From Escherichia coli (GTDB lineage: Bacteria; Pseudomonadota; Gammaproteobacteria; Enterobacterales; Enterobacteriaceae): a stretch of DNA of 64,000 bases. The position numbers and the translations under genes are program-made. Numbering within the stretch: position 1 is the stretch's first letter; each line of letters begins with the position of its first letter. The notes under the pieces are model-generated. The model was not told the origin of the DNA, ran no database searches, and saw only the letters and a list, made by a program, of their open reading frames with translations. This document shows positions 30,308-63,174 of the stretch, in pieces. The stretch lies in the NCBI GenBank assembly GCA_902500205.1, contig GCA_902500205.1_4868.1; one strand, written 5' to 3'.

Positions 30308-30379
30308 AACAGAATTGGTTTGCTGCCTTAATGAAAGCTATCTGGCGCGCCCTTGTTTTTGCCGCAAGGAGAAAACGTA

Positions 30380-30532
30380 ATGACCCACCGTCCAACTCCG
30401 CCTAAGTTCCCCGAAGTACAAACCGTTCCGGAAACGTATTACGATTCTGGGTTCTTCAAACTATTACGCGCGATCTTCTGTCGGAGGGTAAAACCATGCA
30501 ATACGACAACGACGACTGGCCGAAAGGCTTAA
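30380..30532 (+). CDS. possible small lysis-associated protein (50 aa)
   Basis: ATG 7 nt after AAGGAGAAAAC; Pro-rich N-terminus, poly-Thr tail. Below ORF-track size cutoff. Confidence 0.25.
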   Translation: MTHRPTPPKFPEVQTVPETYYDSGFFKLLRAIFCRRVKPCNTTTTTGRKA

Positions 30533-30588
30533 TGCCCATTTTACTGGGATTAATGGTCCTCACGATGCTCGTGCGTTATATGACGTGA
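30496..30588 (+). CDS. possible small membrane protein (30 aa; holin/spanin-like candidate)
   Basis: ATG 7 nt after GGAGGG; single TM-like segment GLMPILLGLMVLTMLV; overlaps previous small ORF in another frame. Confidence 0.25.
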   Translation: MQYDNDDWPKGLMPILLGLMVLTMLVRYMT

Positions 30589-30595
30589 GGTCAGT

Positions 30596-31237
30596 ATGGA
30601 AGCACTTAAGTATAAGTTGTTAGAGAAGCCGTGGTTTATCCTCACGGATGATTTCCATTTCGAGTTTACGTTGCGCAGCCTCTATCGTGAACAGACCGGA
30701 ATGGATGCGATGGTAGCATTAGCAGGTGTGCATCCGGATACCCCGTTATGGGTAACGGTACCGAGAGGATTTGTGACGGACCTGGCAAGCATTCCAGAAG
30801 CGTTACGTCCTATCCTGCATCCGGATGGGCCTTGGGCTGCTGCCGCTTGTGTGCATGATTTGTTTTACCAGAAACGTTCATCGGTAGGCTTTTACCCTGA
30901 CACCGTTGAAGGTAATCTATCTCGTGCTTGCGACAAAACATTCGCTGACCTGATGTTCTTACGCATCATGGAGGCATTAGGCGTTGACACCTTTATTCGT
31001 AAGTCCTTCTACCGTGCCGTTCACGAGTTTGGTTGGCCGTCCTATGTAGACGATAACTCTAAGGTGGTTTATAGCCGGCCGGTAGAAAAGACGTTGTCCT
31101 ATAATCGCAACTACCTGTTCTTTAGAACGTCGCGTACGTTAGCGATTCCTGAACACGAACGTGTTGACATTACTAATGGGCAACCGGTAAACGTGCAGTA
31201 TTTGAATATCAAACGTGCGTTCCTGACTACCCCTTAA
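30596..31237 (+). CDS. DUF1353-like protein
   Basis: Motif VPRGFVTDLASIP matches the G.(V)TDGASIP signature of DUF1353 as I remember it. Confidence 0.45.
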   Translation: MEALKYKLLEKPWFILTDDFHFEFTLRSLYREQTGMDAMVALAGVHPDTPLWVTVPRGFVTDLASIPEALRPILHPDGPWAAAACVHDLFYQKRSSVGFYPDTVEGNLSRACDKTFADLMFLRIMEALGVDTFIRKSFYRAVHEFGWPSYVDDNSKVVYSRPVEKTLSYNRNYLFFRTSRTLAIPEHERVDITNGQPVNVQYLNIKRAFLTTP

Positions 31238-31246
31238 GGAGAGAAA

Positions 31247-31762
31247 ATGTTTCATCCGAATCCTGCCAACTTCGCGTTAAAAGAGTTGATGCCGCAGGAG
31301 TACATCGCGAAATACGGTGAAGGTGCTATTCGTTTCCTTAATCCGTTACTGTTAATCTCGCTCCAACAGATTCGTAATCGTTTTGGGCGGATGGTGATTT
31401 TAACCAGTTCCCAGCAACAGCGTAGTCTGCGTACCCTGCAGTTCTTTATTAATCAAGAGAAACCAAAGGGTGGAGATTGGCAAACTCGTGCAAACAAACT
31501 GTACGCCGAATCAGGCAGTATGCATAAATTCGGTAATGCGTTTGATGCAACAATGCTTGATACTCCGTTGCAGAAAGTACACGACTATATTGCCGCGAAC
31601 CCTAACGAGTTTCCGTTTATTCACTTTATCGAGTGCGATATTACCTGGCTACATGTTGACGTACGCAACCAGCCTGATATCACCTTCTGGTCACCGACAC
31701 GTGGTACCGTTAAAGTGGTTAAGCAACAACCCATCGATTGGAGCAAGCTAGTTAAAATCTAA
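31247..31762 (+). CDS. putative M15-family peptidoglycan peptidase-like protein
   Basis: SMHKFGNAFD fits the SxHxxGxAxD zinc-site motif of peptidase M15 (VanY / L-Ala-D-Glu peptidase type); RBS AAGGAGAGAAA. Confidence 0.4.
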   Translation: MFHPNPANFALKELMPQEYIAKYGEGAIRFLNPLLLISLQQIRNRFGRMVILTSSQQQRSLRTLQFFINQEKPKGGDWQTRANKLYAESGSMHKFGNAFDATMLDTPLQKVHDYIAANPNEFPFIHFIECDITWLHVDVRNQPDITFWSPTRGTVKVVKQQPIDWSKLVKI

Positions 31763-31842
31763 GCCACTTTAATCAAAAGTAATATCATTTATCATTTGAT
31801 ACGTTTAATGCGCTTAGAGAGCGTTTTAGAGGGTAAATAAAG

Positions 31843-31888
31843 CCCTTACCCACTCCCGTAAGGGGAGTGGGTAAGCATTATTTATTTT
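31843..31888. terminator. bidirectional intrinsic terminator
   Basis: CTTACCCACTCCC-GTAA-GGGGAGTGGGTAAG flanked by A-run upstream and T-run downstream; sits between converging plus and minus genes. Confidence 0.7.
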
Positions 31889-32369
31889 CTTCTAACGGAA
31901 CAATCGTAATCGGAGTAGGAACTTCACCGATAAACCCGCTGCTGCAGCGAAAGAATGTCATCCCTTTACCTTCGCCGGTATACGGGTTCACATCCGAAAA
32001 AGAGTAAGTGGGGCTATCGTTTACGGTTTTATTAATACGGTAATAACGCTCACCTGTGGTGGTGTTAACATTCCCGTCGATTTTGCCAATTGTATCTTTA
32101 AACATCATCGGTGACTCTAGTTTGCCACCGTCCCACGTTGCTACCCAGTTTGCACCCACATCCATTACTGTTACTGACCGCGGCATCATCTGTAGATTGT
32201 CCAGAACCGGACGGTAGTCTACAAACTTCTCCTGTGTCCCTGTGCATGTATAAATCACCAAGTCGTGATTCTTTACCGGTGTGCTGCTAAATTGTCCGAT
32301 GTTGCTTGGTGACTGGACGCAACCGGTCAACAGGCTTATAAACGCGAATACGATAAATAGACGTTTCAT
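31878..32369 (-). CDS. predicted lipoprotein (163 aa)
   Basis: N-terminus MKRLFIVFAFISLLTGCVQ: positively charged start, hydrophobic core and L-T-G-C lipobox; isolated minus-strand gene between plus-strand units. Confidence 0.6.
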   Translation of the reverse strand: MKRLFIVFAFISLLTGCVQSPSNIGQFSSTPVKNHDLVIYTCTGTQEKFVDYRPVLDNLQMMPRSVTVMDVGANWVATWDGGKLESPMMFKDTIGKIDGNVNTTTGERYYRINKTVNDSPTYSFSDVNPYTGEGKGMTFFRCSSGFIGEVPTPITIVPLEENK

Positions 32370-32492
32370 AAGGTACCTTTCAGTGTTAAAAAAATTTCTC
32401 GTTTAACGGCCAACTTTACTGTCATATTAAGCCCGCTATGTGGTTTTTGGAATGTTTAGTATGCACCGTTCGCCTACTACGAGGAAACAACC

Positions 32493-33041
32493 ATGGCAGT
32501 TATCTCTGCAAAAGACCAACTCGTCGCGCTGTTTAATGCTGCAAACAGCGGGCTGTCCAGTCCGTTAACTTCTGCTGACGTTACATTCGGCGCTGTTGCT
32601 GACTATTCACCAGCTGATTCTGGAGACACTCGCAACTCCAAACTTACCATCACCGCCACTGCGGAATCCGCTAACTTTACTGGCGAGAAAGAGCTGCATT
32701 ATACCCGTCTCAATTCATTGAACATCATCGGTGCGAAAGCAGTGACCGCTGACCAGGCAGAATGGGATACCGATGATGAAGTGCTTGCTTTTGTCAACGC
32801 AGATCTAATTGCCGCCGGTAAAACGGAAGATGCGTTTGCATTGTCTGAACTCACCATTACACGCGAGGACGGCAGCAGTGGTGAGAAAATCATCACTGTT
32901 AAGGTGAAAGAAGGCCACATTAAATACCAACCTGCCAGCCTTGCTGTTTATACAGTAACGCAGCCAATCGTTAAAACCGACCTGAGCACCACCAATGGTG
33001 AACTGGACGGATTCGACGGCAAAGGTCACGCTGTCATGTAA
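32493..33041 (+). CDS. short family-A-like protein ending TTNGELDGFDGKGHAVM (182 aa)
   Basis: N-terminal pattern (..DQLVALFNAAN...GDTRNSKLTI...HYTRLNSLNII) and C-terminal NGELDGF motif link it to the 13-29 kb array. Confidence 0.6.
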   Translation: MAVISAKDQLVALFNAANSGLSSPLTSADVTFGAVADYSPADSGDTRNSKLTITATAESANFTGEKELHYTRLNSLNIIGAKAVTADQAEWDTDDEVLAFVNADLIAAGKTEDAFALSELTITREDGSSGEKIITVKVKEGHIKYQPASLAVYTVTQPIVKTDLSTTNGELDGFDGKGHAVM

Positions 33042-33077
33042 CAGAGCAATTAGTAGTTTCTAAGAAATAAATAAAAG

Positions 33078-33118
33078 GTACCTACCTCCCTTCGGGGAGG
33101 TAGGGCCTTTATTTTCTT
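33078..33118. terminator. bidirectional intrinsic terminator (UUCG tetraloop)
   Basis: CCTACCTCCC-TTCG-GGGAGGTAGG with A-run upstream and T-run downstream; ends both the plus gene and the minus-strand operon. Confidence 0.75.
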
Positions 33119-33121
33119 TGC

Positions 33122-33793
33122 TTACATGCCGAGTGATTCGGACAATGTTTTTAAACCGGTGTAATCGCGCTTTTCAGCTAACTCACGGATTTGGCGTTTG
33201 TTATCTGCCATTGCTGAGTGCAACACCTGGTCGCGTGCAACAATAGCGCCCAACAACGCTTTACATTGGTCTACTGTAAACGGACTGTGCTTAGTATTCA
33301 GCGTATCGAGCCAGTATTCTGGTGCGGTATCTGCCTGAATGTATTGACCGAGGATGGTACGCGACGATTCATCGGCTTGAAAGTGACTACCTTCAAACTC
33401 GATATAACCATGACGCACATCTTCGTAGCGATGGTCAAGTTCCAACAGCATCTTCTGCACGTCTTCGTAAATGTAACGTGCGGTAGATTTCAGATTCCCG
33501 CGAATTTCGTCGAGGTCAATCTCCAGCACATTAGCAATAAACTCTTTCGTGCGTTTCAATGTGAAGTTAGCTTCAATCTCCGACATCTCATACAGCTTCA
33601 TGCGTGCCAGGGCTTCTTTATCAGACATCCCTTCGATGAGATGGTAATGGAGTAATGCACAAAATCCGGTACGACCCTGATCCTGCGCACCGATTCGTTC
33701 CATGAAATTGCCGTGACGATCAATCGGCAAATCACGCTGGAAATAACGGGCGCGGATCTCTTCGTTCGTTAAGCTTTTGTCAGTAACAGACAT
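33122..33793 (-). CDS. hypothetical protein, last gene of the rSAM/fibre operon
   Basis: ATG 5 nt after GAGGAGG; 223 aa; no assignable motif. Confidence 0.55.
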   Translation of the reverse strand: MSVTDKSLTNEEIRARYFQRDLPIDRHGNFMERIGAQDQGRTGFCALLHYHLIEGMSDKEALARMKLYEMSEIEANFTLKRTKEFIANVLEIDLDEIRGNLKSTARYIYEDVQKMLLELDHRYEDVRHGYIEFEGSHFQADESSRTILGQYIQADTAPEYWLDTLNTKHSPFTVDQCKALLGAIVARDQVLHSAMADNKRQIRELAEKRDYTGLKTLSESLGM

Positions 33794-34335
33794 TCGTCCT
33801 CCTCAATCAGGCCAAGTTCTAACAACAAACCGAAGTCCAGCATCTGGAAGTCCTGATCGAGGTTACCGGCCCACAACAGAGAAATGTTGTGTTGCTCTTC
33901 TTCTTCCAACTGCGGGAGCAGGTGTTCTTCGAAGATTTGACGTTCTGTGTAATAAGCGTCAACCGGGTTATTGGAGCGTAAGTTACGAATACGCATCCGC
34001 GGGAATGACAAGCCCAATGCCACTAAACTTTCAGGACTGGCTTCATCAATAGAGTGACGTAGCAGTTCGATTTTGTGGCGTGGGTATGCAAGCAGTCGCT
34101 TCTCAAAGCCAGGGTTGCGCTTTTCGATTTCCGCGACAGACTCGTGTCCTTTCTCAACGCAGTAGACCGGGATCATCACATTCAGCCCGTATTTAATCAA
34201 CAGGCTTTGGATTTCATCAGTGAAGTCTTCCCCTGCCACAATTGCGTGCACATTGTACAGCTTGCTTTTGCGCAGGAAGCGATCGACCAAGTGCAGTTTA
34301 CGCTTCGTAAAATTGTGAATCAGTATTGACTTCAT
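33769..34335 (-). CDS. hypothetical protein (188 aa) in rSAM cluster
   Basis: Start set at internal ATG (MKSILIHNF..) to limit overlap with upstream rSAM gene; acidic C-terminus. Confidence 0.45.
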   Translation of the reverse strand: MKSILIHNFTKRKLHLVDRFLRKSKLYNVHAIVAGEDFTDEIQSLLIKYGLNVMIPVYCVEKGHESVAEIEKRNPGFEKRLLAYPRHKIELLRHSIDEASPESLVALGLSFPRMRIRNLRSNNPVDAYYTERQIFEEHLLPQLEEEEQHNISLLWAGNLDQDFQMLDFGLLLELGLIEEDECLLLTKA

Positions 34336-35626
34336 TCTGGGCTCCGTTTTGTAATTTTTCTGCTTCAGCACGTTGGCGTACACAACGTGAACAATAGCAC
34401 ATGGATTTATCATGCAAATCTGATGCGCGGGTCGTACCAGTTTTCTGATACCAATATTCCGCCGCCATCAGCTTCGCAGTAGTCCAACCACACTGACGAC
34501 GTTCGGCGTGATACGCTTTACGGTCTTCCAGTGTACCTTCACCGTTTTCGTACGATGCTGCTGCGCAGCTACCGCAACTGTGTTTCATCGGACACCCTAA
34601 ACAGGTTTCTGGGTAGTTGGTGTACTGCGTTTGAATCTCTTCTAACAGCTTACCACCGTCCAGGCTCACAAACTCACGACCGACCAGTTCTGCTACAGCA
34701 GAACGGGAAGTTACCGTGGACATGAAACGGTTACAACCGTAAATCTTGCGATCAAAGCCGAGACAGGTCATGTGCGTCAACGTACCGCAGTACGGTTTCA
34801 GGCGTTCTGGGTCGAGACGAACAGAGTCGTCATGTAAGAGTTTGTCACGCCAATCCGGGTCCCAAGTTGCCATAAAGTTCAGGCCATCCGGGATGATGTG
34901 TGTAATCGTGTTACGCGGGTTGGTGTGCAGACCCTTCTCAATCCAGTAGTCCATCACGTCCATCATCTGGTTCGCGATATCCAACGCCATATGGCGCGGC
35001 AGGATATCTTCGTACGTTACGTTACCAGAGATGGTACCACCGCCGGACATGTCAATTAACGATTTCATGCTGGCGGCATAGTGCGGCAATGTATCGATCG
35101 TAAACGTCGCCTTTACGCCCAGCTCAGCGATGCCAACGCTCTTCAGGTAATTGTAACCGCGTACCGCAGCTTCGTACGACCCTTCACGCGTCGTGGTAAA
35201 GATACGATATTTGTCATGGACTTCAGGTAAACCATCGATGGAGACCCCAATAGACAGTTTGTCTTTCCAGCGCTCGATAATTTCTTTGTTCAGCGGTCGG
35301 TCCAGAAGTGTACCGTTCGTGGAGATACTGAACATATACGGGCGATTGTGTTCTGCGCATAACTTCTCTGCGGTTTCAAAGGCCGCCAAAAGAAGTTTAG
35401 GCTGCATGAACGGCTCACCACCGATGATATCGATGATGACTTCAACGTTCGGGATATCTTTATCGCGCTCGAAACAAGCGTGGATAAAATCAATCACGTC
35501 TGCTACTTTGTTGTTACGCGGATATTTACGCTCGTAGCAGTATTCGCAGTCCAGGTTACATGACAAGTTAGTCACAACCTGATACGTGCGTGGTGTGTAC
35601 TGGATTTGCTGTTCGCTATTACTCAT
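34298..35626 (-). CDS. radical SAM enzyme with SPASM-like C-terminal Cys cluster (putative peptide-modifying maturase)
   Basis: CNLDCEYC (CX3CX2C) near N-terminus, GGEP motif, and C-terminal CLGCPMKHSCGSC (Cx2Cx5Cx2C) plus further Cys, as in SPASM/twitch auxiliary cluster domains. Confidence 0.75.
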   Translation of the reverse strand: MSNSEQQIQYTPRTYQVVTNLSCNLDCEYCYERKYPRNNKVADVIDFIHACFERDKDIPNVEVIIDIIGGEPFMQPKLLLAAFETAEKLCAEHNRPYMFSISTNGTLLDRPLNKEIIERWKDKLSIGVSIDGLPEVHDKYRIFTTTREGSYEAAVRGYNYLKSVGIAELGVKATFTIDTLPHYAASMKSLIDMSGGGTISGNVTYEDILPRHMALDIANQMMDVMDYWIEKGLHTNPRNTITHIIPDGLNFMATWDPDWRDKLLHDDSVRLDPERLKPYCGTLTHMTCLGFDRKIYGCNRFMSTVTSRSAVAELVGREFVSLDGGKLLEEIQTQYTNYPETCLGCPMKHSCGSCAAASYENGEGTLEDRKAYHAERRQCGWTTAKLMAAEYWYQKTGTTRASDLHDKSMCYCSRCVRQRAEAEKLQNGAQNEVNTDSQFYEA

Positions 35627-36533
35627 TGTTCGCCGCCCGTTTACGCTTAGCAGAAATTACACGGTTGATGTAGTTATACGCATCAACGCCGATAGAACGC
35701 GCCAGGCGATTACAGCCGACTTCCAATATCTCTGGCGCGTTCTGAATTTGCTCCTGCGTACCGTCGGCGTTAAGCCACAGCACTTCACTGCACGTGTTGC
35801 ACTCGGTATCGAACATTTTACTGATCGCAAGCCCACATTCAGAATCGTTCTGCATGTTAAGGCGTTCGATATTGTCGAGTATTTTCCAATACCCGTACAT
35901 GAAGTTCATGACGTGGTCTGGCGATAACGGTTTCGGCATCATCGCATCAAACAGCAACGACATACCACCTGGACGGTAATGATAGATTGCTCGGTGCAGC
36001 TCGATGAAATCTTCGTACCAGCGTTTATCGCCTAACTGGTCACGCGTCATCACACCCCAGGTGTAATAGTTGTCCAGCTCGTACAGCACTTCCAGCGCTT
36101 CGTGATTACCACCGTTTACAAAGTTCATAAACGGACGTTCCGACTTCTTGTAGCCGTCAATGGACACAAAGATAAGGTCGAACTGTTTCAGCAACGGCAG
36201 ATGTGATTTACGCATCTTTAAACCGTTGGTGTACATGTGATGACGGAGGTTCGGATGAGACTCCTTCAACTCATTCACGAAGTCTTCAATCTTGCGCTGC
36301 GCTAACAGCGGCTCACCGCCCGTCCAATGAATCTCACCGATATCCGGATTCTTCTCTAAAATCGAGAGAATCTCTTCACGTTGAAACTCACGAGAAGTAT
36401 CTTCTCTATCCATGTAATAAGCCCCTCCACAGAAGCTACAGTCTAAGTTACACTTAGAAGTTGCGACAACCGACAGAATTGACGGTTTGTCGTACAGTTC
36501 AGACGAGATCCTGGATTCTACTTGATCTGTCAT
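35619..36533 (-). CDS. radical SAM enzyme (second, 304 aa)
   Basis: CNLDCSFC (CX3CX2C) and WTGGEPLL motifs; ATG 36533 (MTDQ..) after GGAG; C-terminal region has additional Cys (ECNTCSE). Confidence 0.7.
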   Translation of the reverse strand: MTDQVESRISSELYDKPSILSVVATSKCNLDCSFCGGAYYMDREDTSREFQREEILSILEKNPDIGEIHWTGGEPLLAQRKIEDFVNELKESHPNLRHHMYTNGLKMRKSHLPLLKQFDLIFVSIDGYKKSERPFMNFVNGGNHEALEVLYELDNYYTWGVMTRDQLGDKRWYEDFIELHRAIYHYRPGGMSLLFDAMMPKPLSPDHVMNFMYGYWKILDNIERLNMQNDSECGLAISKMFDTECNTCSEVLWLNADGTQEQIQNAPEILEVGCNRLARSIGVDAYNYINRVISAKRKRAANNE

Positions 36534-36555
36534 TGCAGGTTGCTCCAGTATATTT

Positions 36556-37443
36556 TTAAATATAATCAATGGCGAATAAAGGATCTTCGTCTACATTAGC
36601 GCCAGGCACCAGTAACATCGGGTCGTGATAGGCAGCTAAAATTTTGTTCAGGTCGGCATGTCTTTCGTTCAAGCGTTTCAAATCGGCCAACGTAACCGAA
36701 CGACTACGAATCTCAGAAACAGCTTCTGCTTCTTCTTTCGTTAAATCCACCTTCGTTAAGAGGAAGCTTACCAGCTTACTCAAATCCGCTTCTGTCGCCG
36801 GGTAATCCCCATATCGGGTTTGAACCAGGTGTTGCATCCACGGCTTACGAATACGTTTGGTGATTTCGAAATCGTCAGTCAGCGCATACCAGACAGAACG
36901 CTTTTTATCCCACACGAACTTATAGCTATACGCCATCATGTCCGCTAAACGGGTGATGCCGAGTTCTTTATATCCCTCGATATCGATGTACGGTTCGGTG
37001 TCGAAATACGTTTCCGTATCGGCAGGTACCAGTACAAAGTAGTAAGGGAATGAGCCCAGATAGTCCGGACTCCACCAACGGCGCGCCATCGGTTTTGCTT
37101 CGAGTTCGTCAAACGGTGTAAACATCAGTTCTAAATCGACACTGTTGTTCAAAATCCCTTCACTGAAGAAATACTTACCGTCGACTAACACGCCACGAGA
37201 GTTACCATCGCCGTTAAAGATAACGATGGCCTCTGCAACCATATCACGGATCTTAAACGTATTTTCTACGGTGTAGTTCTTCTTGTCGGTCAAGAAGCGA
37301 CCACGAACCTTTGGCCACTCACCAGGAATCTGTGCAATCAGTCTGACTTTGTCAGCGAGGTGTGCACGCACCGAATCTGGGGAAGATAGATGCAGCGGGT
37401 GGTTGAATGTGGTTTTATACGCAAGATGCAAATCGTTTTTCAT
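36556..37443 (-). CDS. hypothetical protein (295 aa) between precursors and rSAM genes
   Basis: ATG after GGAG; no recognisable motif; position suggests accessory or partner role. Confidence 0.5.
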   Translation of the reverse strand: MKNDLHLAYKTTFNHPLHLSSPDSVRAHLADKVRLIAQIPGEWPKVRGRFLTDKKNYTVENTFKIRDMVAEAIVIFNGDGNSRGVLVDGKYFFSEGILNNSVDLELMFTPFDELEAKPMARRWWSPDYLGSFPYYFVLVPADTETYFDTEPYIDIEGYKELGITRLADMMAYSYKFVWDKKRSVWYALTDDFEITKRIRKPWMQHLVQTRYGDYPATEADLSKLVSFLLTKVDLTKEEAEAVSEIRSRSVTLADLKRLNERHADLNKILAAYHDPMLLVPGANVDEDPLFAIDYI

Positions 37444-37465
37444 TTAATACTCCGAACGTTTTCTG

Positions 37466-37672
37466 TTATCGATTCCCCGCTCCACGGCTACAGCTTCCGC
37501 TGCAGGACCAGCTACACCCACCATTACAGTTATAGTGAGAAAGCGGTAAGCCAGCCAGGTTATTTGTGGTCGACACGGTGCCCTGGTTAGCGATATAGTT
37601 GTTTGCCTGTGCGGTTGTAATGTAACCTTCTGCCGTAACGAGACGGTTTCGAATAGTCTTGAGACTGATCAC
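37466..37672 (-). CDS. leader + Cys-rich core small protein 3 (68 aa)
   Basis: GTG start 5 nt after GGAGG; N-terminus MISLKTIRNRL.. parallels the two larger paralogs; core HYNCNGGCSWSCSGSCS. Confidence 0.55.
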   Translation of the reverse strand: MISLKTIRNRLVTAEGYITTAQANNYIANQGTVSTTNNLAGLPLSHYNCNGGCSWSCSGSCSRGAGNR

Positions 37673-37687
37673 ATAAGCCTCCGTCGG

Positions 37688-38092
37688 TTAGGAGTTAGGA
37701 CCTGAACAACCACCAGAGCACGCACCTGAGCAGTTTGCGGAGCAGGATTTACCACAACCCCCAGAACAGCTGCCTGTGCACGTGCCGCTACAACCACCAG
37801 AGCACGAAGAGCTACAGCCCGTGCAGCTGCTGCTACAGCCTGATACACAGTTTGCCGAACAAGTCGACCCACAACCGCCCGTAGCAGACCCAGTACATCC
37901 GCCAGAACAACTCGAGCAACTAAAAGAGCATGTGCCACCACAGTCATAGTGCGAACGGCCTTGACCTGCGAACAAGTCGGCGTTATTCGTAGCTTTATTG
38001 CGAATGTAGTTTTGCACATTCGTGGTGTTCTTTAAAGCGTTTGCATCGATCGCGTTTAATCGGTTATTCAGTTCTTTTAATCCAATTGCCAT
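37688..38092 (-). CDS. leader + Cys/Gly/Ser-rich core protein 2 (134 aa)
   Basis: N-terminal ~48 aa conserved with neighbours (MAIGLKELNNRLNAIDAN..); C-terminal ~85 aa is C-(S/T)-G-x-C repeats with about 20 Cys. Confidence 0.65.
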   Translation of the reverse strand: MAIGLKELNNRLNAIDANALKNTTNVQNYIRNKATNNADLFAGQGRSHYDCGGTCSFSCSSCSGGCTGSATGGCGSTCSANCVSGCSSSCTGCSSSCSGGCSGTCTGSCSGGCGKSCSANCSGACSGGCSGPNS

Positions 38093-38102
38093 TTAATCCC
38101 CC

Positions 38103-38495
38103 TTAGCGACCTGAACAGCCACCGGAGCAGGCTCCGGAACAACTGGAAGAACATGAGCCACCGCAACCACCTGTGCAGTTACCGGTACAGCTACTACTGC
38201 AACCACCAGAACAACCAGAGCAACCAGAACAGTTACCGCCACACGTCGAAGAACAGCTACCGATACAAGAAGCAGAACAGCTTCCTGAACAGCTCGAACA
38301 GCCATGCGAGCAACCGTTAGAGCACGTCCAAGAACATGTCCCGCCGCAATCTAGCTGTGTTTTCGTCCAACCCCCAAATCGGTCTGCCGCGTTATGGGCT
38401 TTAGAGGCCACTTGCGCGTCGATACGGGGGCCTGTCGCCATGTTAGCTTCGACTATCTGGACGCGGTTTCTGACGTCTTTAATAGATATCGCCAT
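38103..38495 (-). CDS. leader + Cys/Gly/Ser-rich core protein 1 (130 aa)
   Basis: ATG after AAGGAAG; MAISIKDVRNRVQIVEAN.. leader-like region, then DCGGTCSWTCSNGCSHGCSSCSGSC.. core. Confidence 0.65.
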   Translation of the reverse strand: MAISIKDVRNRVQIVEANMATGPRIDAQVASKAHNAADRFGGWTKTQLDCGGTCSWTCSNGCSHGCSSCSGSCSASCIGSCSSTCGGNCSGCSGCSGGCSSSCTGNCTGGCGGSCSSSCSGACSGGCSGR

Positions 38496-38496
38496 T

Positions 38497-38541
38497 ACGC
38501 TTCCTTAAAAAGTAGAACGAGCGGACTATGTCCATAAACAT
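38497..38541 (-). terminator. hairpin with partial T-run between fibre gene and Cys-rich genes (attenuator or partial terminator)
   Basis: On the minus strand GAGCCGGACTATG-tttatgga-CATAGTCCGCTC followed by GTTCTACTTTTT, immediately upstream of the first Cys-rich gene RBS. Confidence 0.4.
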
Positions 38542-38560
38542 AGTCCGGCTCGTAAACAAG

Positions 38561-39763
38561 TTACTTAGTACCCGCTTCAGCTTGAACATCGTCGCGCGAG
38601 GTGAGGTTGTTGTTAACGTGAACAGCAGCCTGCACAACACCGCCATACTGTTTATGGAGGTAATTCGGGTGTGGGTTATCCGCAGCCGCATGGTTCGCCA
38701 GATTCTGGTTTGCCTGCGAAATTGCGTTGGTGTTGTTTACAACCTGAGTTTTAAGACTGTTGATTTGTCCTTGCAGGTTATCAATTTGCTGTTGGAAGTC
38801 TTTGCCCTGATTCTCAAGATCCGTGACACGCTGATTTGTTTCATTCAGCGCAGACTGAAGATCGTTAACCTTCTTCTGTAATTGCAACACCAGAGAATTA
38901 AGGTTAGCTAATGCTAACGACATTTTCTGGTAATTTTGAGCAACCACGTTAAGCTGGTCGTTCCACGCGGCTAACGAAGCCACAATTGCATCGATGCGTT
39001 GCCCCAACGCTGTGTCTGCTGCTCTTAAGTCGCCGATATCTTTGATAGTGGCGTCAATGGCAGTCTGTACACTTTGAATCAGAGCACGAATCTCCGTCTC
39101 CGTCAGGCCATTAACCTGATGAATGTCGAGATTGTGTACGTTACCTTCGGCGTTGATGTGGGTATTTAAGGCGTCGAGGAAGTCGTTTTTCAGACCACCC
39201 AGAATACCTTTAATTTCTTCCAGCTGTACTGCAGAGCCGGAGTTAATCGCATCTTTAATCCCCGCGAGTACGGTAATGATATACTCAAAACCGTAGATAT
39301 CGCCAAGGTCTTTATACGTCGGTGCGGACGGGAACGTATCGGGTACGTTCCGAAGATCCTTGAAGTCCACCACGCGGTCTTCAATTTTCAACGACGCAAT
39401 CGCTTGTCGGATGCCTTCGACGTTCGCGGACTGAAAACCACCGACAACTTGCGCAGAGACTTCGATATCAGTAGGAATGGCCGTGTTAGTTACCACCACA
39501 CCCATGACCACTTCGCGGTTCTTGGTCATTTTCTGATATGCAGTATGTGCAAAAATCAGCTCGTAGTCTGTACCGCGTTTGTACGGGTAGACACCTGGTT
39601 TATTCGCAGCCGCCAAGCGGAAGGTATCCGCGTAGAAAGCTCCGTCAGGAAATGCAAAAGCCCGGTTAACTTTACCAGAACCTAACGTAATACGCCGCGT
39701 AACGGCGTTCGACGTTAATGTCCCGGTAAGGTCGAGCGGGTACTGATAAATGATTTCGGCCAT
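38561..39763 (-). CDS. tail-fibre-like coiled-coil protein (400 aa)
   Basis: ATG 39763 (MAEIIYQ..) 7 nt after AAAGGAG; N-terminal module shared with the three giant proteins (..AFYADTFRL....G.DYELIFAH); Gln/Asn/Leu heptad coiled coil in C-terminal third. Confidence 0.65.
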   Translation of the reverse strand: MAEIIYQYPLDLTGTLTSNAVTRRITLGSGKVNRAFAFPDGAFYADTFRLAAANKPGVYPYKRGTDYELIFAHTAYQKMTKNREVVMGVVVTNTAIPTDIEVSAQVVGGFQSANVEGIRQAIASLKIEDRVVDFKDLRNVPDTFPSAPTYKDLGDIYGFEYIITVLAGIKDAINSGSAVQLEEIKGILGGLKNDFLDALNTHINAEGNVHNLDIHQVNGLTETEIRALIQSVQTAIDATIKDIGDLRAADTALGQRIDAIVASLAAWNDQLNVVAQNYQKMSLALANLNSLVLQLQKKVNDLQSALNETNQRVTDLENQGKDFQQQIDNLQGQINSLKTQVVNNTNAISQANQNLANHAAADNPHPNYLHKQYGGVVQAAVHVNNNLTSRDDVQAEAGTK

Positions 39764-39810
39764 TGCCAAACTCCTTTGATTGGGGCTTCCTTGCCCCATA
39801 GCGCTAACTG

Positions 39811-42800
39811 TTAGGTACGGAACATAAGATTGACCTGGATAATATCAGGCTGTTGCCATCCTCTCTCGTTCACCCAATCGTGCGCAATCGTTAACGTAAG
39901 ATCATCGCCATCCCACGCCACGATCGGCGGTGGGAATAAACCCTGAGCGCCCGTGGTAACAACCGGAATTGCACCCGCCACATCCACAAACGTGTAGCTA
40001 CGGCTGTTCAAAACAACTGGTGTGCCGTAGGTCTCTCCCCCCAATGGTAAGATTTGAATCTTACTATCCGAAAGATCGGTGGTGATTGGTAGTCCCCCCG
40101 CGTCCGTGAAAAGCCAAGAGCAAATATGCTGGTTGGCCATCTCAAGCGCTGGGGAACTCAACACAGCAGAGAAAGTAAACGTACATGGCACGCCTGCGGG
40201 CAGAGAGTGCTGTTTGTGATACACGGTATGTGGTGTTGGCATTAGCACTTCTGGATTTTCTTCAATGTTAACATCCTTACCTTCCGCCTCGACGTTGTAT
40301 AAAAATCTATCTACCGTATCCCATGGGGCGATGTTGACATTAAAGGTCGTTTCTACTCCCGGTGTACCTGGGACGACGAATTTACTTTGTATCACCACTA
40401 TCATCATTCCTGAGGTCGGAGAGAAAGCAGGCGTAGGGATACCCACCCACTCCATTCCCAACGATGCCGCTTCACCGTTCTCATCGGCCGTTACCGTCGC
40501 AATTGTTGTAGGATGTTTCCAAAACGCCCCCGACTTGTTTGCCTGAGTAAACGCCGGCAAAGTTTTCAAGCCTTCGAAACGTTTGGAGACCATCGGTTTA
40601 CCGCGACGCTGTGCGTCAGATACGGTATAAAGCAACTGACTATCCAGATAGCCTTTCGTAGCATCGATAGACAAAGGACCCATCGCTTCTTTACGCAATG
40701 GTGCCAGTCTGCCCGTTGCCGCATCCCTTCCCACTTCCACATCATGCTTATTCTCAACCGCCGCATGTTCCAACAGTTGTTTCACCGCCCCCAATCGCTT
40801 AGCATGTTCGACGTTAGTCTCGACGACTCGCGACGAGCCCGTTTTAACATACCCGATATAGAGTTCCGTTTCAGTGTCTGGATGTTGAATCACGTCCATT
40901 ACGTACTTCGGTGTACCATTTTCTACCTTGGCGTGCAGGTAGAATGTCCGGTTCTGATGGTTTGTTGGAAATGCTGCGCTGAGGTCAATATACCACGTAG
41001 GCAGCTTATAAGTGCTCGAGCCGAAACGCAGGTCAACTTCCTCAGTCACATATACCAGCCAACCTTCAGCTGTTTCCACACCAGCAATGACAACCGATTC
41101 AGTCGGGCCACTAAAATTAGGAGCCGCGACAAAATCTCTCGACGACGTTGCGATACCACCACAATAGACGTAGTCGAGAGATGAGTTGTGTAGCATCACC
41201 TGATCACGATGAGCCAGATAAGCTGGGCTGACTGGAGTGTGTGACGGTGCCATACGTCCAACGCCGTGTGGAGCAGAAGAACGCGTCCAGGTACCATTAG
41301 ACAGCGTAAGACCAACAGCGTAGTTAAGCGCACCCAAGTCGCCAATCAGGCGCAAGGTTAACGTGTGTGGAAGATACAACCCGAACTGCGTACCATCTAC
41401 CGACACCAGTGTAGGTTGTCCCGGCCGGCGTGTTTTTCCTCCCGTTATCTCACCCAACGTAGCATAGTTCAAGTCATAGTCGAGGTTGTTATAGAAGTCA
41501 AACAAAGCCAATATCGCTGCGGGGAATGTTACCTGCCCGTTGCTGATTGTTGGTTTCAGTGTAAAGTAGTAGATATCCAACACGTTAACGTTGTTCACAG
41601 TACGCGTACATGCTACTTGTGCTAACGTGAGCGGTGTGGCCGTACCAATGCCGATGAACCAAACGGAGAACAATGCCTTTCCTGCGTTATTTGCGGCAAG
41701 GATAAATTCCGAAGCATAACCATTCGCAGCGCCTGCCGGTGCACCGTCGATGATCATCTGCTTCATCTTATTCCATTCGGCTTGTGACAGCGTCAACCGA
41801 TCGGCATGAATCGTGAAAGTGCCAGAAACGTTGTGGTAAGGGAATGTTTCTGGCCCTGTGCAATACCAGCCGTTTAACTCTGTACCAGGCGACGCCGGTG
41901 TAACAATGTGGCACATCTGCGACAGATTCTCGTACGTGGTAGAATCCACTACACGACGATTGTTAGTTGGTCCATACCCCGCTTTACCTGAGTAAGTGGT
42001 GTTCGGATCAAACTCAACTTCAATTGCCAAACGGGAACGTGGCTGTGACAACCAGATAAGTCTGGAATTCGCTCCCAGAGTCAGCGGATACGCCATACCC
42101 AGCTCGTAGATAGAACCACGACCTTGGTTTAACGTTACCGCACTAAACCTTCTGGCAGTGAAGTTGTAGTCGCACGACAGGTACTCGTACCAACTCACAC
42201 CGTCGTCTAACGTGGTAATCGTGACAATTGGCATTAGGTCACGATCGCCGGCATGTCCTTGCGAAACGATATATTTGTCTTGCGATGTTGCAAAGGTTTG
42301 GTTATTAGCTTGACCTTCGCCCCACTTCCGGCTCGGAATCCCAATCTCAGCACCACCGTTATAACGAACCGCGGTAAGATCAGCCACAATAGGGAATCGA
42401 TCAGCCCCTTCCAGCGTTACCGTCATTGAACTGCAATCAACAACAAAGCTTGACACCCATTGTTTAAAGCTAATCGTCTGCCCTGTGCTGGAGGCAAACC
42501 AGACTGTTGGCGTTAAACCAACACGAAATTTCAGCCCATCAACACCAATCGCGTGATTACACTCAGGACCATGTACAAAGTTGATTGCATTGTTCCACTT
42601 CGCTAACGCGTCTGCGTAGATCTGTGTAACTGGTGCTGGGAGCGCATCGGAAGGTGCACGTTTCTGTCCCTGTCGCAGATAAACGTTTTCACCCGACGTT
42701 AATATCCCGCCTGTTAACGCATCCGCCACAAACGTGTTGCTACCACCCGGATTAAGTTCGTTGAGTGCGATGCTACGCATACTCACGAAATAGTTACCGG

Positions 42801-44994
42801 AGGTAAGCACCGTACGCAACAGGTAGACACGTTCATTACAAACAATCAAATCGTCTGTAGAAGCGTTTGGAGCCCACGGTGCTGTCGTTACTGTGCCCGC
42901 ACCATTACCGTTCTTGTAATCACCCAACACCACTTTAACAACACGATGATGTTTTGCATGGTCAATCGTCCCATCGAAGATGACCAAGTAGTACGCACCG
43001 TCACTGCCTAAGCAGATCATTGCATCTGTACCGGTAATCACAATAGCAACCAGATTCACCCCAGGATACGCCGACATTCCAGCGGGTCGATAACGTACGG
43101 ACGTCTGCTGCATATTTTCCAGCGTATTGCTTGGCGACACATCGGCATAGGCGTAATAGATAGTCCAGTCACCTGGTGGATTCCCGTTAGAACCGTTACG
43201 GAGCGAGTAAACCTTACCAGACTCGTAACGCGCCAAACCTTTCTGCCAGGTTTGGTTTTTGGTATACCCTTCGTAGTTCCCCTGGACTGGTATAGGCAAG
43301 AAGTTATTGTTGCCGTACGATGATCCGCCGACAGTCCATGCGGGCAACAGCGTAGCAATCTTGTCATTCAGTGTGTCAATCTTTTGTTCAAGCAAGAAGC
43401 CCTGACGCGAAGTGACCATCTTATCCGAGGTAGTGTCGATTGCATCCCACAGTTTAGCCAAACCTGTAACAGACGTGGATGCGTACGGCACGTTATCGAG
43501 ATCTGCAATGGTGTGGGTGTGCGTTGTAAGCGCTTTGCCTGATAGCACGGTACGCAATGCGTTAGTAACTGGCTTTTCTAACGGTCCGGTATTGTTCATC
43601 TTCTCAATACCGAAATCTGCCGCGGTTAAGGTCAGATGCATCTGCCCGTTTGAATCTAATACAAACCCTTTACCGTTGACTGTATACGTGTCGTCCACAT
43701 ATCCGTCGAGTTTGTTCTTCAAGTCAGTAACAGCTTTTTGGGAAATCGCTGTGGACGCTGCAGCGGACGCCGAAAGGTTAGTAATCGCAAACAAACCCTG
43801 CACAGTTGTGGTTGCTGCAGGCAGCTCCGCATTCATGTAAAGTTTGTTTGTTTCTTTACCAGAGCCGTAAATCTTCAACGTGTCGCTGGACTTGAAGTAG
43901 GCGTTTGCTGGAAGTATCTTCACCGAGGTCAAGTACATCTTAACCATATCCGGTGTAACAAGATACACGCTATTATACACAGGTGCAAGCACACCCGCAT
44001 CATAATCGCCCCACTTGTCACCTGCTTTACCCGAGTGAACCCAAAGCGTGTTCAGACCAGCACTGAACTCCGTAGCGATGCCCGGTTCGTTGTTATCCTG
44101 GTCAGCTTTTAATACCAGCGGTTTTGTCGAGGTGATGATGAACTTCTCACCCTTCATGCTGATAACGTGACCAGACGTTGTTTGGAACGTAATCGCGTCG
44201 TTATTCAGAACACGCATACGGCCCAGTAAATCACCCAGGGTATTATCCAGAAGCATGTCAACGTGTTTCTGTTGGATGCCACTGGTAGACATTAACGTCA
44301 CTAGCTCTGCCAGGGTACGTCCGAATGCCTTAGTCGCATCTACGGCTTTGCCGAGTACCGGGAGAGCGCCAATGTCACCGCAGGTGTAACCATGTGCATT
44401 TTTAATCAGGTGGTGTTGATACATTTCGTCATCAAACACCTGCTTACCGTTCTGATAAATCAAATCGGTAACTTCGGCAAAAGCCTCATCCAGCTCGTGG
44501 GCGCGCTCTAAAATACCCAGACGGATATCTTCCAACGCCTTTACGATTTCATCGCGAAGAATCGCTTCTTCGAGGTCTTTTGGCGGGTCGATTGGCGAGA
44601 TAATCGGCGGATATTTCATCAGCTCAGACCAATCGCAGTTACGCGGGTCTTTCATATCTGTCTTAACCAGATACTTGCCGATTTCAGAAGCAGGGATGCG
44701 ATACTGTCGACCAACCGACAACAACTCGTATTCTACCTCTGTGGCGTTCAGCAGCATTATGCTGCCGTATATTGCATCGTTCTCAGCCTCGGCTAATTCC
44801 TGGAAGTAATGTCCTAGGAAATAATCGAGACCTTCTATTAACTTGCGTTTGGTTCCGGTTGTTTTATCGGTAACGGTTAACGTTAACCCGATGCGATAGA
44901 ACGGTGCTTCGACGGGAATGACCGCCGAATAACGGTTCGGGTAAGTAGCGGTACTGAGCGTACCGTTAAACTGCGCCGCATCTTCTCTCGGCAT
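39811..44994 (-). CDS. giant tail-fibre / receptor-binding-like protein (1727 aa)
   Basis: ATG 44994 (MPREDAAQF..) after AGGAG; shared N-terminal module (APFYRIGLTL...GLDYFL); fibre-type motifs (TTTVQGLFAIT, ISQKAVTDL, HTHTIADL). Confidence 0.75.
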   Translation of the reverse strand: MPREDAAQFNGTLSTATYPNRYSAVIPVEAPFYRIGLTLTVTDKTTGTKRKLIEGLDYFLGHYFQELAEAENDAIYGSIMLLNATEVEYELLSVGRQYRIPASEIGKYLVKTDMKDPRNCDWSELMKYPPIISPIDPPKDLEEAILRDEIVKALEDIRLGILERAHELDEAFAEVTDLIYQNGKQVFDDEMYQHHLIKNAHGYTCGDIGALPVLGKAVDATKAFGRTLAELVTLMSTSGIQQKHVDMLLDNTLGDLLGRMRVLNNDAITFQTTSGHVISMKGEKFIITSTKPLVLKADQDNNEPGIATEFSAGLNTLWVHSGKAGDKWGDYDAGVLAPVYNSVYLVTPDMVKMYLTSVKILPANAYFKSSDTLKIYGSGKETNKLYMNAELPAATTTVQGLFAITNLSASAAASTAISQKAVTDLKNKLDGYVDDTYTVNGKGFVLDSNGQMHLTLTAADFGIEKMNNTGPLEKPVTNALRTVLSGKALTTHTHTIADLDNVPYASTSVTGLAKLWDAIDTTSDKMVTSRQGFLLEQKIDTLNDKIATLLPAWTVGGSSYGNNNFLPIPVQGNYEGYTKNQTWQKGLARYESGKVYSLRNGSNGNPPGDWTIYYAYADVSPSNTLENMQQTSVRYRPAGMSAYPGVNLVAIVITGTDAMICLGSDGAYYLVIFDGTIDHAKHHRVVKVVLGDYKNGNGAGTVTTAPWAPNASTDDLIVCNERVYLLRTVLTSGNYFVSMRSIALNELNPGGSNTFVADALTGGILTSGENVYLRQGQKRAPSDALPAPVTQIYADALAKWNNAINFVHGPECNHAIGVDGLKFRVGLTPTVWFASSTGQTISFKQWVSSFVVDCSSMTVTLEGADRFPIVADLTAVRYNGGAEIGIPSRKWGEGQANNQTFATSQDKYIVSQGHAGDRDLMPIVTITTLDDGVSWYEYLSCDYNFTARRFSAVTLNQGRGSIYELGMAYPLTLGANSRLIWLSQPRSRLAIEVEFDPNTTYSGKAGYGPTNNRRVVDSTTYENLSQMCHIVTPASPGTELNGWYCTGPETFPYHNVSGTFTIHADRLTLSQAEWNKMKQMIIDGAPAGAANGYASEFILAANNAGKALFSVWFIGIGTATPLTLAQVACTRTVNNVNVLDIYYFTLKPTISNGQVTFPAAILALFDFYNNLDYDLNYATLGEITGGKTRRPGQPTLVSVDGTQFGLYLPHTLTLRLIGDLGALNYAVGLTLSNGTWTRSSAPHGVGRMAPSHTPVSPAYLAHRDQVMLHNSSLDYVYCGGIATSSRDFVAAPNFSGPTESVVIAGVETAEGWLVYVTEEVDLRFGSSTYKLPTWYIDLSAAFPTNHQNRTFYLHAKVENGTPKYVMDVIQHPDTETELYIGYVKTGSSRVVETNVEHAKRLGAVKQLLEHAAVENKHDVEVGRDAATGRLAPLRKEAMGPLSIDATKGYLDSQLLYTVSDAQRRGKPMVSKRFEGLKTLPAFTQANKSGAFWKHPTTIATVTADENGEAASLGMEWVGIPTPAFSPTSGMMIVVIQSKFVVPGTPGVETTFNVNIAPWDTVDRFLYNVEAEGKDVNIEENPEVLMPTPHTVYHKQHSLPAGVPCTFTFSAVLSSPALEMANQHICSWLFTDAGGLPITTDLSDSKIQILPLGGETYGTPVVLNSRSYTFVDVAGAIPVVTTGAQGLFPPPIVAWDGDDLTLTIAHDWVNERGWQQPDIIQVNLMFRT

Positions 44995-45026
44995 TGCAAA
45001 CACTCCTAATCTGTAATAAAACGGAG

Positions 45027-45056
45027 ACCGCCCTCCCAATAACGGAAGGGCGGTTT
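45027..45056 (-). terminator. weak intrinsic terminator between giant fibre genes
   Basis: ACCGCCCT..AGGGCGGT hairpin followed on the minus strand by CTCCGTTTTATT; likely partial read-through. Confidence 0.4.
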
Positions 45057-45089
45057 ACCTACGGACTACCCGCCCGTAGGCAGTCCGTC

Positions 45090-48000
45090 CTAAGAGGCCC
45101 ACTCACCCGAGTTGTTGCCTTCGTTTCTACGTTCAGTATCCAACGTTTGTAAAATCCAATCCCATGTCCTGGTGGGGATGTGGAATGGATTACGCTTCTC
45201 AATGAGAATCGTTTCGCCACCAGTGCGAAGTTCCACCGGTGTCGTTTCAGTAATCACGAACATCGGATTACCACTACTACCTACGCCATTAATAGTGAAC
45301 TTCGCTTGCAACGGCGGCACAGAACCTTCCGGAGGCACGAACACGATGTGAATTGGCTGCATCGGTTTCGTGCGGGCAAGAGTCCTGGATATCTGAACAG
45401 CTGTTGTCGATGCACTGAAAGGTATAACATTACCCGGAATTTTCTCACTACCCACGATGATATATCCAGGGTAGTTAGAGAGCATTGTCCCATTTACCGA
45501 CACAAAACGCTCAGTTTGAGTTGGGCGATAAGCCCGCATAAAGCCGTACTTCCATTCACCACCGTTAGACGTATAGTCTGCAGGAGCCGACTCAAGTAGC
45601 GGAGCACCACGTTTCTGCAGCCCTTTATAAAACGGCGCTGGGAGTTTACCGTTCGGTGCAAGTTCCGGATAACCCTCACTTGCAGCAGACATCGTGATGT
45701 ATTCCGTAACCGGGTGATCAACGTTATCTCCAAATGACGCAAAAGGTACCGTTGTTACTGTCATCTCCTCGTGGTCGGAAGACTGTCTATCTGGCGTCCT
45801 TTCAATATACGACTCAAACAGTGAACGTAAATAATGGAAACGATTTATATCCACATCTGAGATGATCGGCTGCATCAAACCGTGGTTAATAGTCACGTTG
45901 TCTCGAGTTTCAATACCGGAAACGTGGATGGCTAGCGCCCCACCTTTAAAGTAATCGATCGCATCAAACGGAATGTCGTATTCCATTTCGTAAACCTGCA
46001 CCAGCGGATTGGCTATCAACTTAGAAACCATTGAGATGCGCAGTACCTGCGTATCAACAATGTATCGATAACGTACAAGCCAACGATCTCCAAGCGGCGC
46101 AAGCTCACTATCGGTATGAACCGAAAGAAAATCTAAACACTCGGTAGATTGGCTCGTCAGGTTTTTAATTACCCTCGGATTTTCAAGCACCTTATTTGTA
46201 ACACTGCCCTGCGTGGTCGAGATGATGCCTCCAGTTGCTTGGTTATAAGGAGACCTGATGAAGCCACAATTCAATTCTGGACGATTGCCACTCCATCTCA
46301 GTACCCTAGTCATGCTTTTATCATCTGCAGACGGGGCCATGAAGTTTAATGTGATATCGCGAACGCGAACTGTTTGTGCTTCCGACAAATCAACATCGAC
46401 CACCACAGAACCTTCAAACGTCGCCATCCCTTTTTCTTTCGGGTTGCTTGGTGTAAACCAGCAGTACGGTGATGCGCTTTCTGTGGAGACAACCGCTCCA
46501 ACAAACACTAGGCTTGAAATGGTACTATCAAATTTATAATCGAATAACCCTCGGTCTAATCGAATATAGTGGTTACCAGAAACTGGACTATTAGGGTACG
46601 CATAAAGCCACTGTTTAGGCAACGGATCGACTTTGTTTAGCGGTAACATTTTTGGGTTATCCGTCAACGACCAGTCGGCATTACTCACTCCGTGCGCCAG
46701 ACGTGTTTCGAAGTGCCGTTTAAGTTCGGACGCCATGCCAAAATCAAACGTCGTTTCAAACTCGTAAGTCGTACCTGCAACCAATCCCGTCTCGGGTACA
46801 TCAATATGTCCGATATAGCCGCGTTCCAAGTTAATACCTTCCGTGTCCACAATAGGTTCGGCGCGCGAATATAACGCATCGGTTATCATGTTCACATAGA
46901 GGTAATGCCTTAAACCATTCGGCGTCTTAACAAACTCCTGCAGGCGGGCAACTTTGGTGTTTTTATCCGAGGCCCCAACCGCAAAGTCACCGTCGTAAAT
47001 TGTGAAACGAATTGCGGCTGCTTTAGCGCTATCGTTACACTCGGCACGGAATGCTAAGCAGTGTTGCTTCCACCCCTCCTTGACAGTCGCCTCCAGATAC
47101 CCCGCTTCTGTAATACCCGCACCGATAATTTCACCGTCCAGATAAACAGAAACAGCACCACCGCCACGAACCCAAATCCGTAGTTTACCAGAGTCGCAAC
47201 GAACCCACGTTTTCGCCAAGAGGTTAACGACTGACAAATCACCCATTCCGGTTGTCGTTAAACCAATCTGCGCACCGTAGTTCGTTTCCGGGACGGCAAC
47301 CTCAAACCCACTAAAATCAATACCGTCACCGATATTAATTACCGCGTTCTGCCACGTTCTTTCCATACGGTTATCTGGAGAGAACCACTGGAACATCGGG
47401 GTGGTTTGCAGGTCTATCGAACCAGATACCGTCCCCTCTTTACGTGCACCATTTAACAGATAGAAATAATTCAAATCCGTTACGGCGAGGGTGGTACGTG
47501 TAGATCCCACAGTCCAAGTCTTACCACGCACAGCGGCAAAATCGGTCACGGAATCCTCTTTCGCGTTTGCTAGCGCAGCTGCAACTACGTCTAAACGTTT
47601 TGACAAATCGTTCAGAACGTTCGGGGTAACGCCGCGATTACCCGACAAGCCGTTTAGGTTGGTAGAATATCGAGCGATACCGGGAACTGTTTGAGAAGCC
47701 GTTGGGATCTGTAAATCGGCGAAGTTGTGATGGTGACCTTTATCACTAAGACCGGTAACTGCTTCTGCCAACGCATCAGAAAGTGGTTTATCGACGTCAG
47801 CTGTGTTATCAGCCAAGTCTAAACCTAAATCCTTTTTCGTCAGCGTTCGACTACCAGTGTTCATCGGCTGGTTATTCAGCAGCGTTGTCTTCCTGACGTA
47901 CGAAGACAGGTCGCCCTCATACGGCAAAAGCGCCGACGGGGTGACTGCTTGTCCCTTGACTACATCGCTCGGCTTATCAGTCAGCGTCACAACGCCTGGT

Positions 48001-54547: not shown

Positions 54548-54641
54548 TTACTTATCTCCATTAACAAATGATAGCAGAAGAACCCTATGTTCAACTACTT
54601 GTACTTCGAGGCATATTAACTGCCCCGACTCGTAAATTAGT

Positions 54642-63123: not shown

Positions 63124-63174
63124 GCATGACCTTTTGGATATGAACGACTAATACTTTCTCATTAGAAGGCAAAC

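Follow-up and report, generated by a model that had tools for sequence, protein, structure and literature searches.

To our knowledge, promoters of the multisubunit RNA polymerases of nucleus-forming jumbo phages are known from experiment only for Pseudomonas phages. TATG is the start motif of late and middle promoters in phiKZ (PMC4666361, PMC12809450). The late promoters consist of TATG with +1 at the G; none of the four bases is dispensable in vitro, and changes at -4 and +2 are tolerated (PMC4666361). Middle promoters add the element AAanTTACc upstream, and the promoter P78M carries both elements (PMC4666361). The A/T-rich box with TTAC is located some 20-26 nt before the start. The purified non-virion RNA polymerase (nvRNAP) of phiKZ does not transcribe middle promoters in vitro (PMC4666361, PMC7598289), and according to a review, bioinformatics fails to predict middle and late promoters (PMC7598289). 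The terminators of phiKZ have the motif BCCYCCCCHWWDGGGRRGGBYTTATKYYGT (PMC10914365). Salmonella phage SPN3US, a jumbo phage related to phiKZ, has both virion and non-virion RNA polymerases of the multisubunit type (PMC5105663, PMC7598289), and a search of the literature for a transcription start site or terminator map of SPN3US-like phages did not find one.

In this study, we analyzed a hairpin between two genes of an SPN3US-like phage. The window, the whole stretch of 64,000 nucleotides that was analyzed, comes from a Seoulvirus jumbo phage and is 98.6% identical to SPN3US; window positions convert to those of SPN3US (NC_027402) by adding about 105725. Megablast of positions 37400-39900 returned SPN3US and about 30 close relatives with 96-99% identity. 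All genes around the hairpin are carried by the minus strand, among them the gene of a 1727-aa baseplate/fibre protein (from the ORF list and the SPN3US annotation). The gene upstream of the hairpin (38561..39763, minus strand) encodes a 400-aa virion structural, fibre-like coiled-coil protein, SPN3US ACQ60_gp099, which matches phrog_2163 with an E value of 1e-107 and is the 'fibre' gene of a first-pass annotation of this DNA. The gene downstream (38103..38495, minus strand) encodes the first of three paralogous Cys-rich proteins (130 aa, phrog_6085). It is followed on the same strand by the second and third paralogues (37688-38092 and 37466-37672, phrog_6085), a 295-aa protein and two radical SAM (rSAM) genes (PF04055). 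The first-pass annotation had placed a 65-nt gap between the fibre gene and the first Cys-rich gene, and this was borne out, with the gap at 38496-38560. We favor, with moderate confidence, the reading that this gap holds a terminator with a phiKZ-type promoter nested inside it.

Some features of the neighborhood are of separate interest. The Cys-rich trio (37466-38495, minus strand) and the segment 34298-37443 (minus strand) form a module beside the fibre genes that is conserved in five genera. The Cys-rich paralogues have a conserved N-terminal part of ~57 aa and a C-terminal run of CxxxCS-type repeats, with no Pfam match, and the first of their genes is without annotation in most GenBank records of the relatives compared. 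Two strong perfect hairpins between convergent genes, one of 13 bp (31845-31875) and one of 10 bp (33081-33104), have a T-rich tail on either strand and are likely bidirectional terminators that close the downstream end of the minus-strand fibre/rSAM block.

Layout and conservation of the hairpin

Read on the minus strand, the gap and its flanking codons have the sequence TAA-CTTGTTT-ACGAGC[C]GGACTATG-TTTATGGA-CATAGTCCGCTCGT-TCTACTTTTT-AAGGAAG-CGTA-ATG. The stop codon TAA of the fibre gene is at 38563-38561 and the hairpin proper at 38517-38553, its first base being the 8th nt past the TAA. The 5' arm ACGAGC[C]GGACTATG (38539..38553, with C38547 bulged) and the 3' arm CATAGTCCGCTCGT (38517..38530), both supported by the fold and by covariation, enclose the 8-nt apical loop TTTATGGA (38531..38538). 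The T-rich tail TCTACTTTTT (38507..38516, 7 T of 10), in which the 3' ends of terminated fibre transcripts are predicted, is followed by the RBS AAGGAAG of the first Cys-rich gene (38500..38506) and by the start ATG at 38495. The first-pass annotation described a 12-bp stem with an 8-nt loop. The hairpin and the size of its loop are correct, but the stem consists of 14 rather than 12 Watson-Crick pairs (6+8), interrupted by one bulged C. RNAfold adds two further pairs, which brings the loop down to 4 nt. The range originally given for the element, 38497-38541, spans the RBS, the tail, the 3' arm and the loop and omits 12 nt of the 5' arm.

As RNA, a 52-nt segment folded with -23.7 kcal/mol, compared with -7.4 +/- 2.4 kcal/mol for dinucleotide shuffles (z -6.9, 0/200 shuffles as good); as DNA, the fold had -15.0 (z -8.3). 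When compared with the other 19 terminator-like hairpins of the window (-9.7 to -25.2, 3-9 T), the fibre/Cys-rich hairpin (-23.2, 7/10 T) was among the three most stable of the 20. Its T-run is present on the minus strand only, and the transcribed tail UCUACUUUUU has 7 U of 10, yet is interrupted (UCUAC) beside the stem. A simple scan for consensus terminators did not detect the hairpin because of the bulge. The window contains no second copy.

We compared the gap across five genera (Seoulvirus, Erskinevirus, Machinavirus, Wellingtonvirus and Derbicusvirus; 14 annotated relatives) and also looked at uncultivated contigs from IMG/VR. A stable hairpin occupies this site in every relative examined, the IMG/VR contigs included; the stem sequences largely differ between genera, and the hairpins of ten relatives gave z values of -3.0 to -7.1 in shuffle tests. 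When the 12 intergenic regions were aligned together with MAFFT, RNAalifold returned 0 pairs because the register of the hairpin shifts by as many as four bases against TATG, a conserved motif in the loop. Pairs were therefore counted within the Seoulvirus and Erwinia-phage groups, and each sequence was folded alone. In Seoulvirus, both sides had changed in 4 of the 14 pairs and 95% of the cells were paired, compared with 30-51% when the 3' partners were slid by 1-3 columns. The Erwinia-phage group had changes on both sides in 5/14 pairs and 92% paired cells, versus 35-54% after sliding, and none of 500 shuffles reached the observed covariation score. These paired substitutions show that selection acts on the pairing, and compensating mutations have preserved the hairpin in at least seven lineages. 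Inverted repeats do occur by chance, and the hairpin could in principle be such a repeat, or belong to a dispersed repeat family, and be functionless. The fold statistics (z -6.9, 0/200 shuffles), the compensatory changes in seven lineages and the single copy speak against this, and we consider its probability negligible.

The selected pairing, the position after a stop codon and the T-rich tail fit the proposal of the first-pass annotation that the hairpin is a partial terminator or a 3'-end stability element, which it probably is. The same annotation also considered an attenuator, and here we observed neither an alternative pairing nor a leader peptide nor a match in Rfam. Riboswitches, attenuators and leaders were rejected after an Rfam scan of 30000-48000 (E <= 1), which gave just one chance-level match, at another hairpin. 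None of the four Logan contigs carrying the gene had an end at the hairpin. In most relatives, a T-run or YTTAT follows the stem. TTAT is located directly 3' of the stem in pEa29, phiEaH2, pEa8, pEa43, Wellington and the IMG/VR relatives, while the window has TCTAC instead. Derbicus, Phobos and CR5 (the Derbicusvirus group) have a weaker hairpin (-13 to -15) without a T-run, and there are compensatory changes among them. Since the hairpin is kept in this group without a T-run, termination cannot be its sole or universal role.

The TTAC and TATG boxes

In the alignment of 12 sequences, the invariant positions from stop codon to start codon were the stop codon itself, the AC of a TTAC box, two bases of the stem, TATG, AAGG-A in the ribosome site and a single T ahead of the start codon. 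The TATG box lies in the loop (38533..38536, minus strand) and is invariant in all relatives, and its G38533 (about 144258 in NC_027402) is the predicted transcription start. The TTAC box (38552..38555, minus strand) corresponds to the upstream element of phiKZ middle-type promoters and has its C at -19 from this start. Counted from the C of TTAC, the G of TATG lies 19 nt away in every lineage but Wellington, where it is 20 nt away; Erskinevirus has AAAC and Derbicusvirus TAAC in place of TTAC. From the G of TATG to the start codon there are 26 to 41 nt across the relatives, with 38 nt in the window. The loop bases that flank TATG vary among relatives, matching the tolerance of phiKZ at -4 and +2. 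We read P78M, the only phiKZ middle promoter compared directly, from the phiKZ genome sequence (NC_004629) as AAAATTACC-AAATGTGTTAAATA-TATG, which is TTAC-N15-TATG. The window has the identical geometry, and its box TTGTTTACG has the C at -19, at the same position as in P78M. By their pattern of conservation, two short invariant boxes at a fixed spacing with freely changing bases between them are a promoter signature. The first-pass annotation had missed that the TATG in the loop and the TTAC 15 nt upstream are (nearly) invariant and together match a phiKZ-type promoter.

The hairpin might also be a terminator or 3'-end stability element only, with no start in the gap and with the Cys-rich/rSAM genes expressed solely by read-through; TTAC and TATG would then be kept for loop stability, for protein contact on the RNA or by slow divergence. 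Its stability, covariation and T-rich tail are typical of terminators of this phage, and the bare motif shows no genome-wide enrichment, as TTAC-N14-16-TATG has 8 matches in the window versus 6.7 expected and only its position is non-random. However, the stems diverged almost completely, yet the four loop bases and the AC at 19 nt are invariant. The geometry of the boxes equals that of a mapped phiKZ promoter, the bases flanking TATG vary as they are tolerated to at -4/+2 in phiKZ (PMC4666361), and the motif is position-enriched 24-43 nt upstream of other genes, where it has no hairpin around it. We regard a terminator alone as rather unlikely; if only the terminator were real, the finding would be routine.

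The position of the motif was assessed by a scan of 264 kb, made up of the window and the 50-kb syntenic segments of phiEaH2, Huxley, Derbicus and Wellington. This gave 18 strict matches, 8 of which (6 independent loci) are 24-43 nt upstream of same-strand annotated starts. Within 124 upstream windows the motif occurred 5 times, compared with a mean of 0.2 (maximum 2) for 143 controls with letter-permuted boxes, although such counts across genomes take in orthologous sites and are not fully independent. The spacing in these windows peaked at N15, with otherwise just 16, weakly. TATG was 1.65-fold over-represented 18-50 nt upstream of starts, and its G was 32-41 nt before the start codon in 25 of the 47 upstream occurrences, some of which are orthologous sites; the 38 nt of the fibre/Cys-rich gap falls within the peak of 33-40 nt, at the modal value. 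This suggests a preferred leader of ~35 nt for phiKZ-type starts in the five genome segments (the window and L016-L019). At the orthologous sites 7221 of the window and 4913 of phiEaH2, TGAAATTTACG and TATG are kept and the spacer is entirely different. Elsewhere, the usual order is a terminator hairpin, a T-tract running into TTAC, N15 and TATG (window 63142; Wellington 592 and 4900). In the fibre/Cys-rich gap this order is permuted: the hairpin comes after TTAC and before the downstream region.

Both the structure and the loop sequence are conserved, and this could also reflect a function of the hairpin at the RNA level, as a site for a phage or host protein (a translational operator) or as an endonuclease processing site, recognized via the UAUG loop. 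An AU-rich single-stranded stretch follows the stem, and in the Derbicusvirus group the hairpin, which lies 4-5 nt ahead of the RBS, persists with no T-run; both observations agree with such a function. But the register slides by up to 4 nt, the G of TATG being unpaired in Seoulvirus and part of the closing pair in Erwinia phages, and a fixed spacing to TTAC, which is outside or at the base of the stem, is expected of a DNA signal and not of an RNA loop epitope. There was no match to an Rfam family and no second copy in the window that would suggest a regulon. Hence, an RNA-level function appears improbable.

Alternatively, the inverted repeat could assist the promoter, by extruding or by easing melting, and offer the non-template TATG in single-stranded form to nvRNAP, with termination being secondary or absent. 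The nvRNAP of phiKZ reads TATG on the opened non-template strand (PMC12809450), the DNA hairpin is stable, and TATG is found at the apex in every lineage despite the turnover of the stem; the main support comes from the hairpin without T-run in the Derbicus group. On the other hand, hybrid promoters of phiKZ remain active when their upstream half is foreign (PMC4666361), which argues that the upstream arm is dispensable, and the other TTAC-N15-TATG sites have no inverted repeat around TATG. Neither are hairpin loops enriched for TATG: we rejected TATG in a hairpin loop as a general promoter architecture, as it was present in only 4 of 498 hairpin-strand instances in 314 kb, and the fraction of TATG in loops, 12% versus 8.5% overall (140 upstream regions), was below that of several same-letter permutations. 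We give a structure-assisted promoter little credence. If true, it would help explain how a 4-base consensus specifies phiKZ-type promoters.

Two further candidates were rejected. There is no sigma-70 promoter site near 38.5 kb, and the region has 5 such sites versus 22.9 expected from shuffles. A small ORF starting from the ATG in the loop varies in length (8-18 codons) and is not preceded by a ribosome site.

Several other sites in the window were noted during the search. The 47-nt gap before the 400-aa gene (39764-39810, minus strand) contains a TATG whose G, at 39797, precedes the ATG at 39763 by 34 nt, and a GTAC one base off the TTAC position; this TATG may mark an additional start inside the fibre operon. 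Sites of the form TTTACG-N14/15-TATG at 7199-7221 (plus strand), 63120-63142 (plus strand) and 54612-54635 (minus strand) are 24, 33 and 65 nt upstream of starts, respectively, and are candidate promoters of the phiKZ middle type. The long conserved box CAGATAGATGTTATCTCAGTGA is present at 7166-7187 and 56193-56214 (both plus strand), intergenic and upstream of genes, with 0 copies expected. It has looser copies near 11700, 59960 and 61780 and is also found in phiEaH2 (L016, about 4850) and Derbicus (L018, about 8265). The copy at 7166 is located between a terminator and a TTAC-N15-TATG site. This box resembles a second, AT-rich class of promoters, possibly of the early or virion-polymerase type. 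A second hairpin with a TATG, at 3037-3064 (plus strand), has a 10-bp stem, the loop GATCATAT and a T9 run; the TATG is at the 3' edge of the loop, 38 nt before the ATG at 3093. This hairpin is nearly base-for-base identical in pEa_SNUABM_29, SPAsTU and Erskinevirus Asesino, and the homology to these phages starts exactly at the hairpin, as if hairpin and gene had moved together as a cassette. phiEaH2 lacks the three genes at 3093-7117 at the corresponding position.

A proposed terminator with a nested promoter

In the reading that we favor, a terminator with a promoter inside it, phage RNA polymerase arriving from the baseplate/fibre operon (minus strand) would make the 14-pair hairpin and the U-rich tail after the fibre stop. 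A fraction of the transcripts would end near 38507-38510, which would leave the fibre mRNA with a protective 3' hairpin. The same bases would, as DNA, be a 'middle'-class promoter for the phage's own non-virion RNA polymerase, composed of TTAC at -22..-19, a free 15-nt spacer that also forms the 5' arm, and, in the loop, TATG at -3..+1. Polymerase recruited to TTAC/TATG would start at G38533 in the loop. Transcripts from G38533 would contain the 3' arm only and therefore would not form the hairpin or be stopped by the terminator; indeed, the leader starting at this G has no strong fold (-7.3 kcal/mol). The 38-nt leader would carry the ribosome site of the first Cys-rich gene, 27 nt downstream of G38533. 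This may explain why TATG has been kept at the apex, since in so short a gap only the unconstrained spacer and early transcribed region can supply bases for the two arms.

As a result, the expression level of the Cys-rich/rSAM module, and possibly its timing, could be set independently of the fibre genes. The first-pass annotation had likewise proposed that the hairpin decouples this module from the fibre genes. Termination fits this idea, and it would be only part of the explanation, as transcription is probably also re-initiated inside the hairpin, which that annotation did not consider. That termination and initiation occur in the fibre/Cys-rich gap, and by which polymerase, we infer from the sequence comparison.

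If this is true, the nested promoter would be a compact reset of expression between a structural operon and the Cys-rich/rSAM module. If confirmed, the element would also provide a natural part of about 55 bp to insulate and re-drive genes in jumbo-phage engineering. More generally, the phiKZ geometry TTAC-N15-TATG was recovered by comparative analysis in enterobacterial SPN3US-like phages and in Erwinia phages, which supplies candidate start sites for them.

Comparison with described promoters and terminators

The two boxes match the phiKZ middle class in every feature that can be tested on sequence. Like P78M, the site in the window has TTAC-N15-TATG with the C 19 nt from the G that is +1 in phiKZ, is A/T-rich upstream of TTAC, and lies before a gene of a phage with the same two-polymerase system. 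The differences are the phage genus and host, the T-rich TTGTTTAC upstream of TTAC in the window in contrast to AAAA in P78M, and the strong hairpin formed by spacer and early transcribed region, which P78M does not have. In addition, the start is predicted in the window and mapped in P78M.

A promoter signal displayed in a short DNA hairpin is also found in coliphage N4. The promoters of the N4 virion RNA polymerase have a hairpin of 5-7 bp with a 3-nt loop, and the template strand is read. They need the help of SSB and supercoiling, and the enzyme is an unrelated single-subunit polymerase. The structure-assisted reading considered above would, if true, make the fibre/Cys-rich hairpin a multisubunit-polymerase analogue of the N4 hairpin promoters.

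As a terminator, the hairpin looks like an ordinary member of the intrinsic kind. The terminators of phiKZ and 201phi2-1 mapped by ONT-cappable-seq (PMC10914365, PMC11512511) are likewise intergenic stem-loops on the coding strand with a T-rich tail. The TTAT of the phiKZ consensus is present in the tails of most relatives and has decayed to CTAC in the window. The stem of the consensus, CCYCCCC...GGGRRGG, is not matched by the stem in the window (ACGAGCCGGACTATG / CATAGTCCGCTCGT), and phiKZ terminators have a tetraloop, unlike the 8-nt loop in the window, where termination is predicted.

The proposed combination of the two functions has a counterpart in bacterial promoter-coupled terminators, in which a short gap between tandem genes both ends and starts transcripts with shared bases (Fletcher et al., bioRxiv 10.64898/2026.08.19.745784). 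In these, stem and T-tract supply the -35 element and the spacer for a sigma-70 promoter, and the start is about 10 bp downstream of the termination site (bioRxiv 10.64898/2026.08.19.745784). By contrast, the start predicted in the window falls in the loop, about 25 nt before the point where termination is predicted, and the putative promoter is of a phage-polymerase type. If confirmed, the fibre/Cys-rich gap would thus be a permuted form of these recently described elements.
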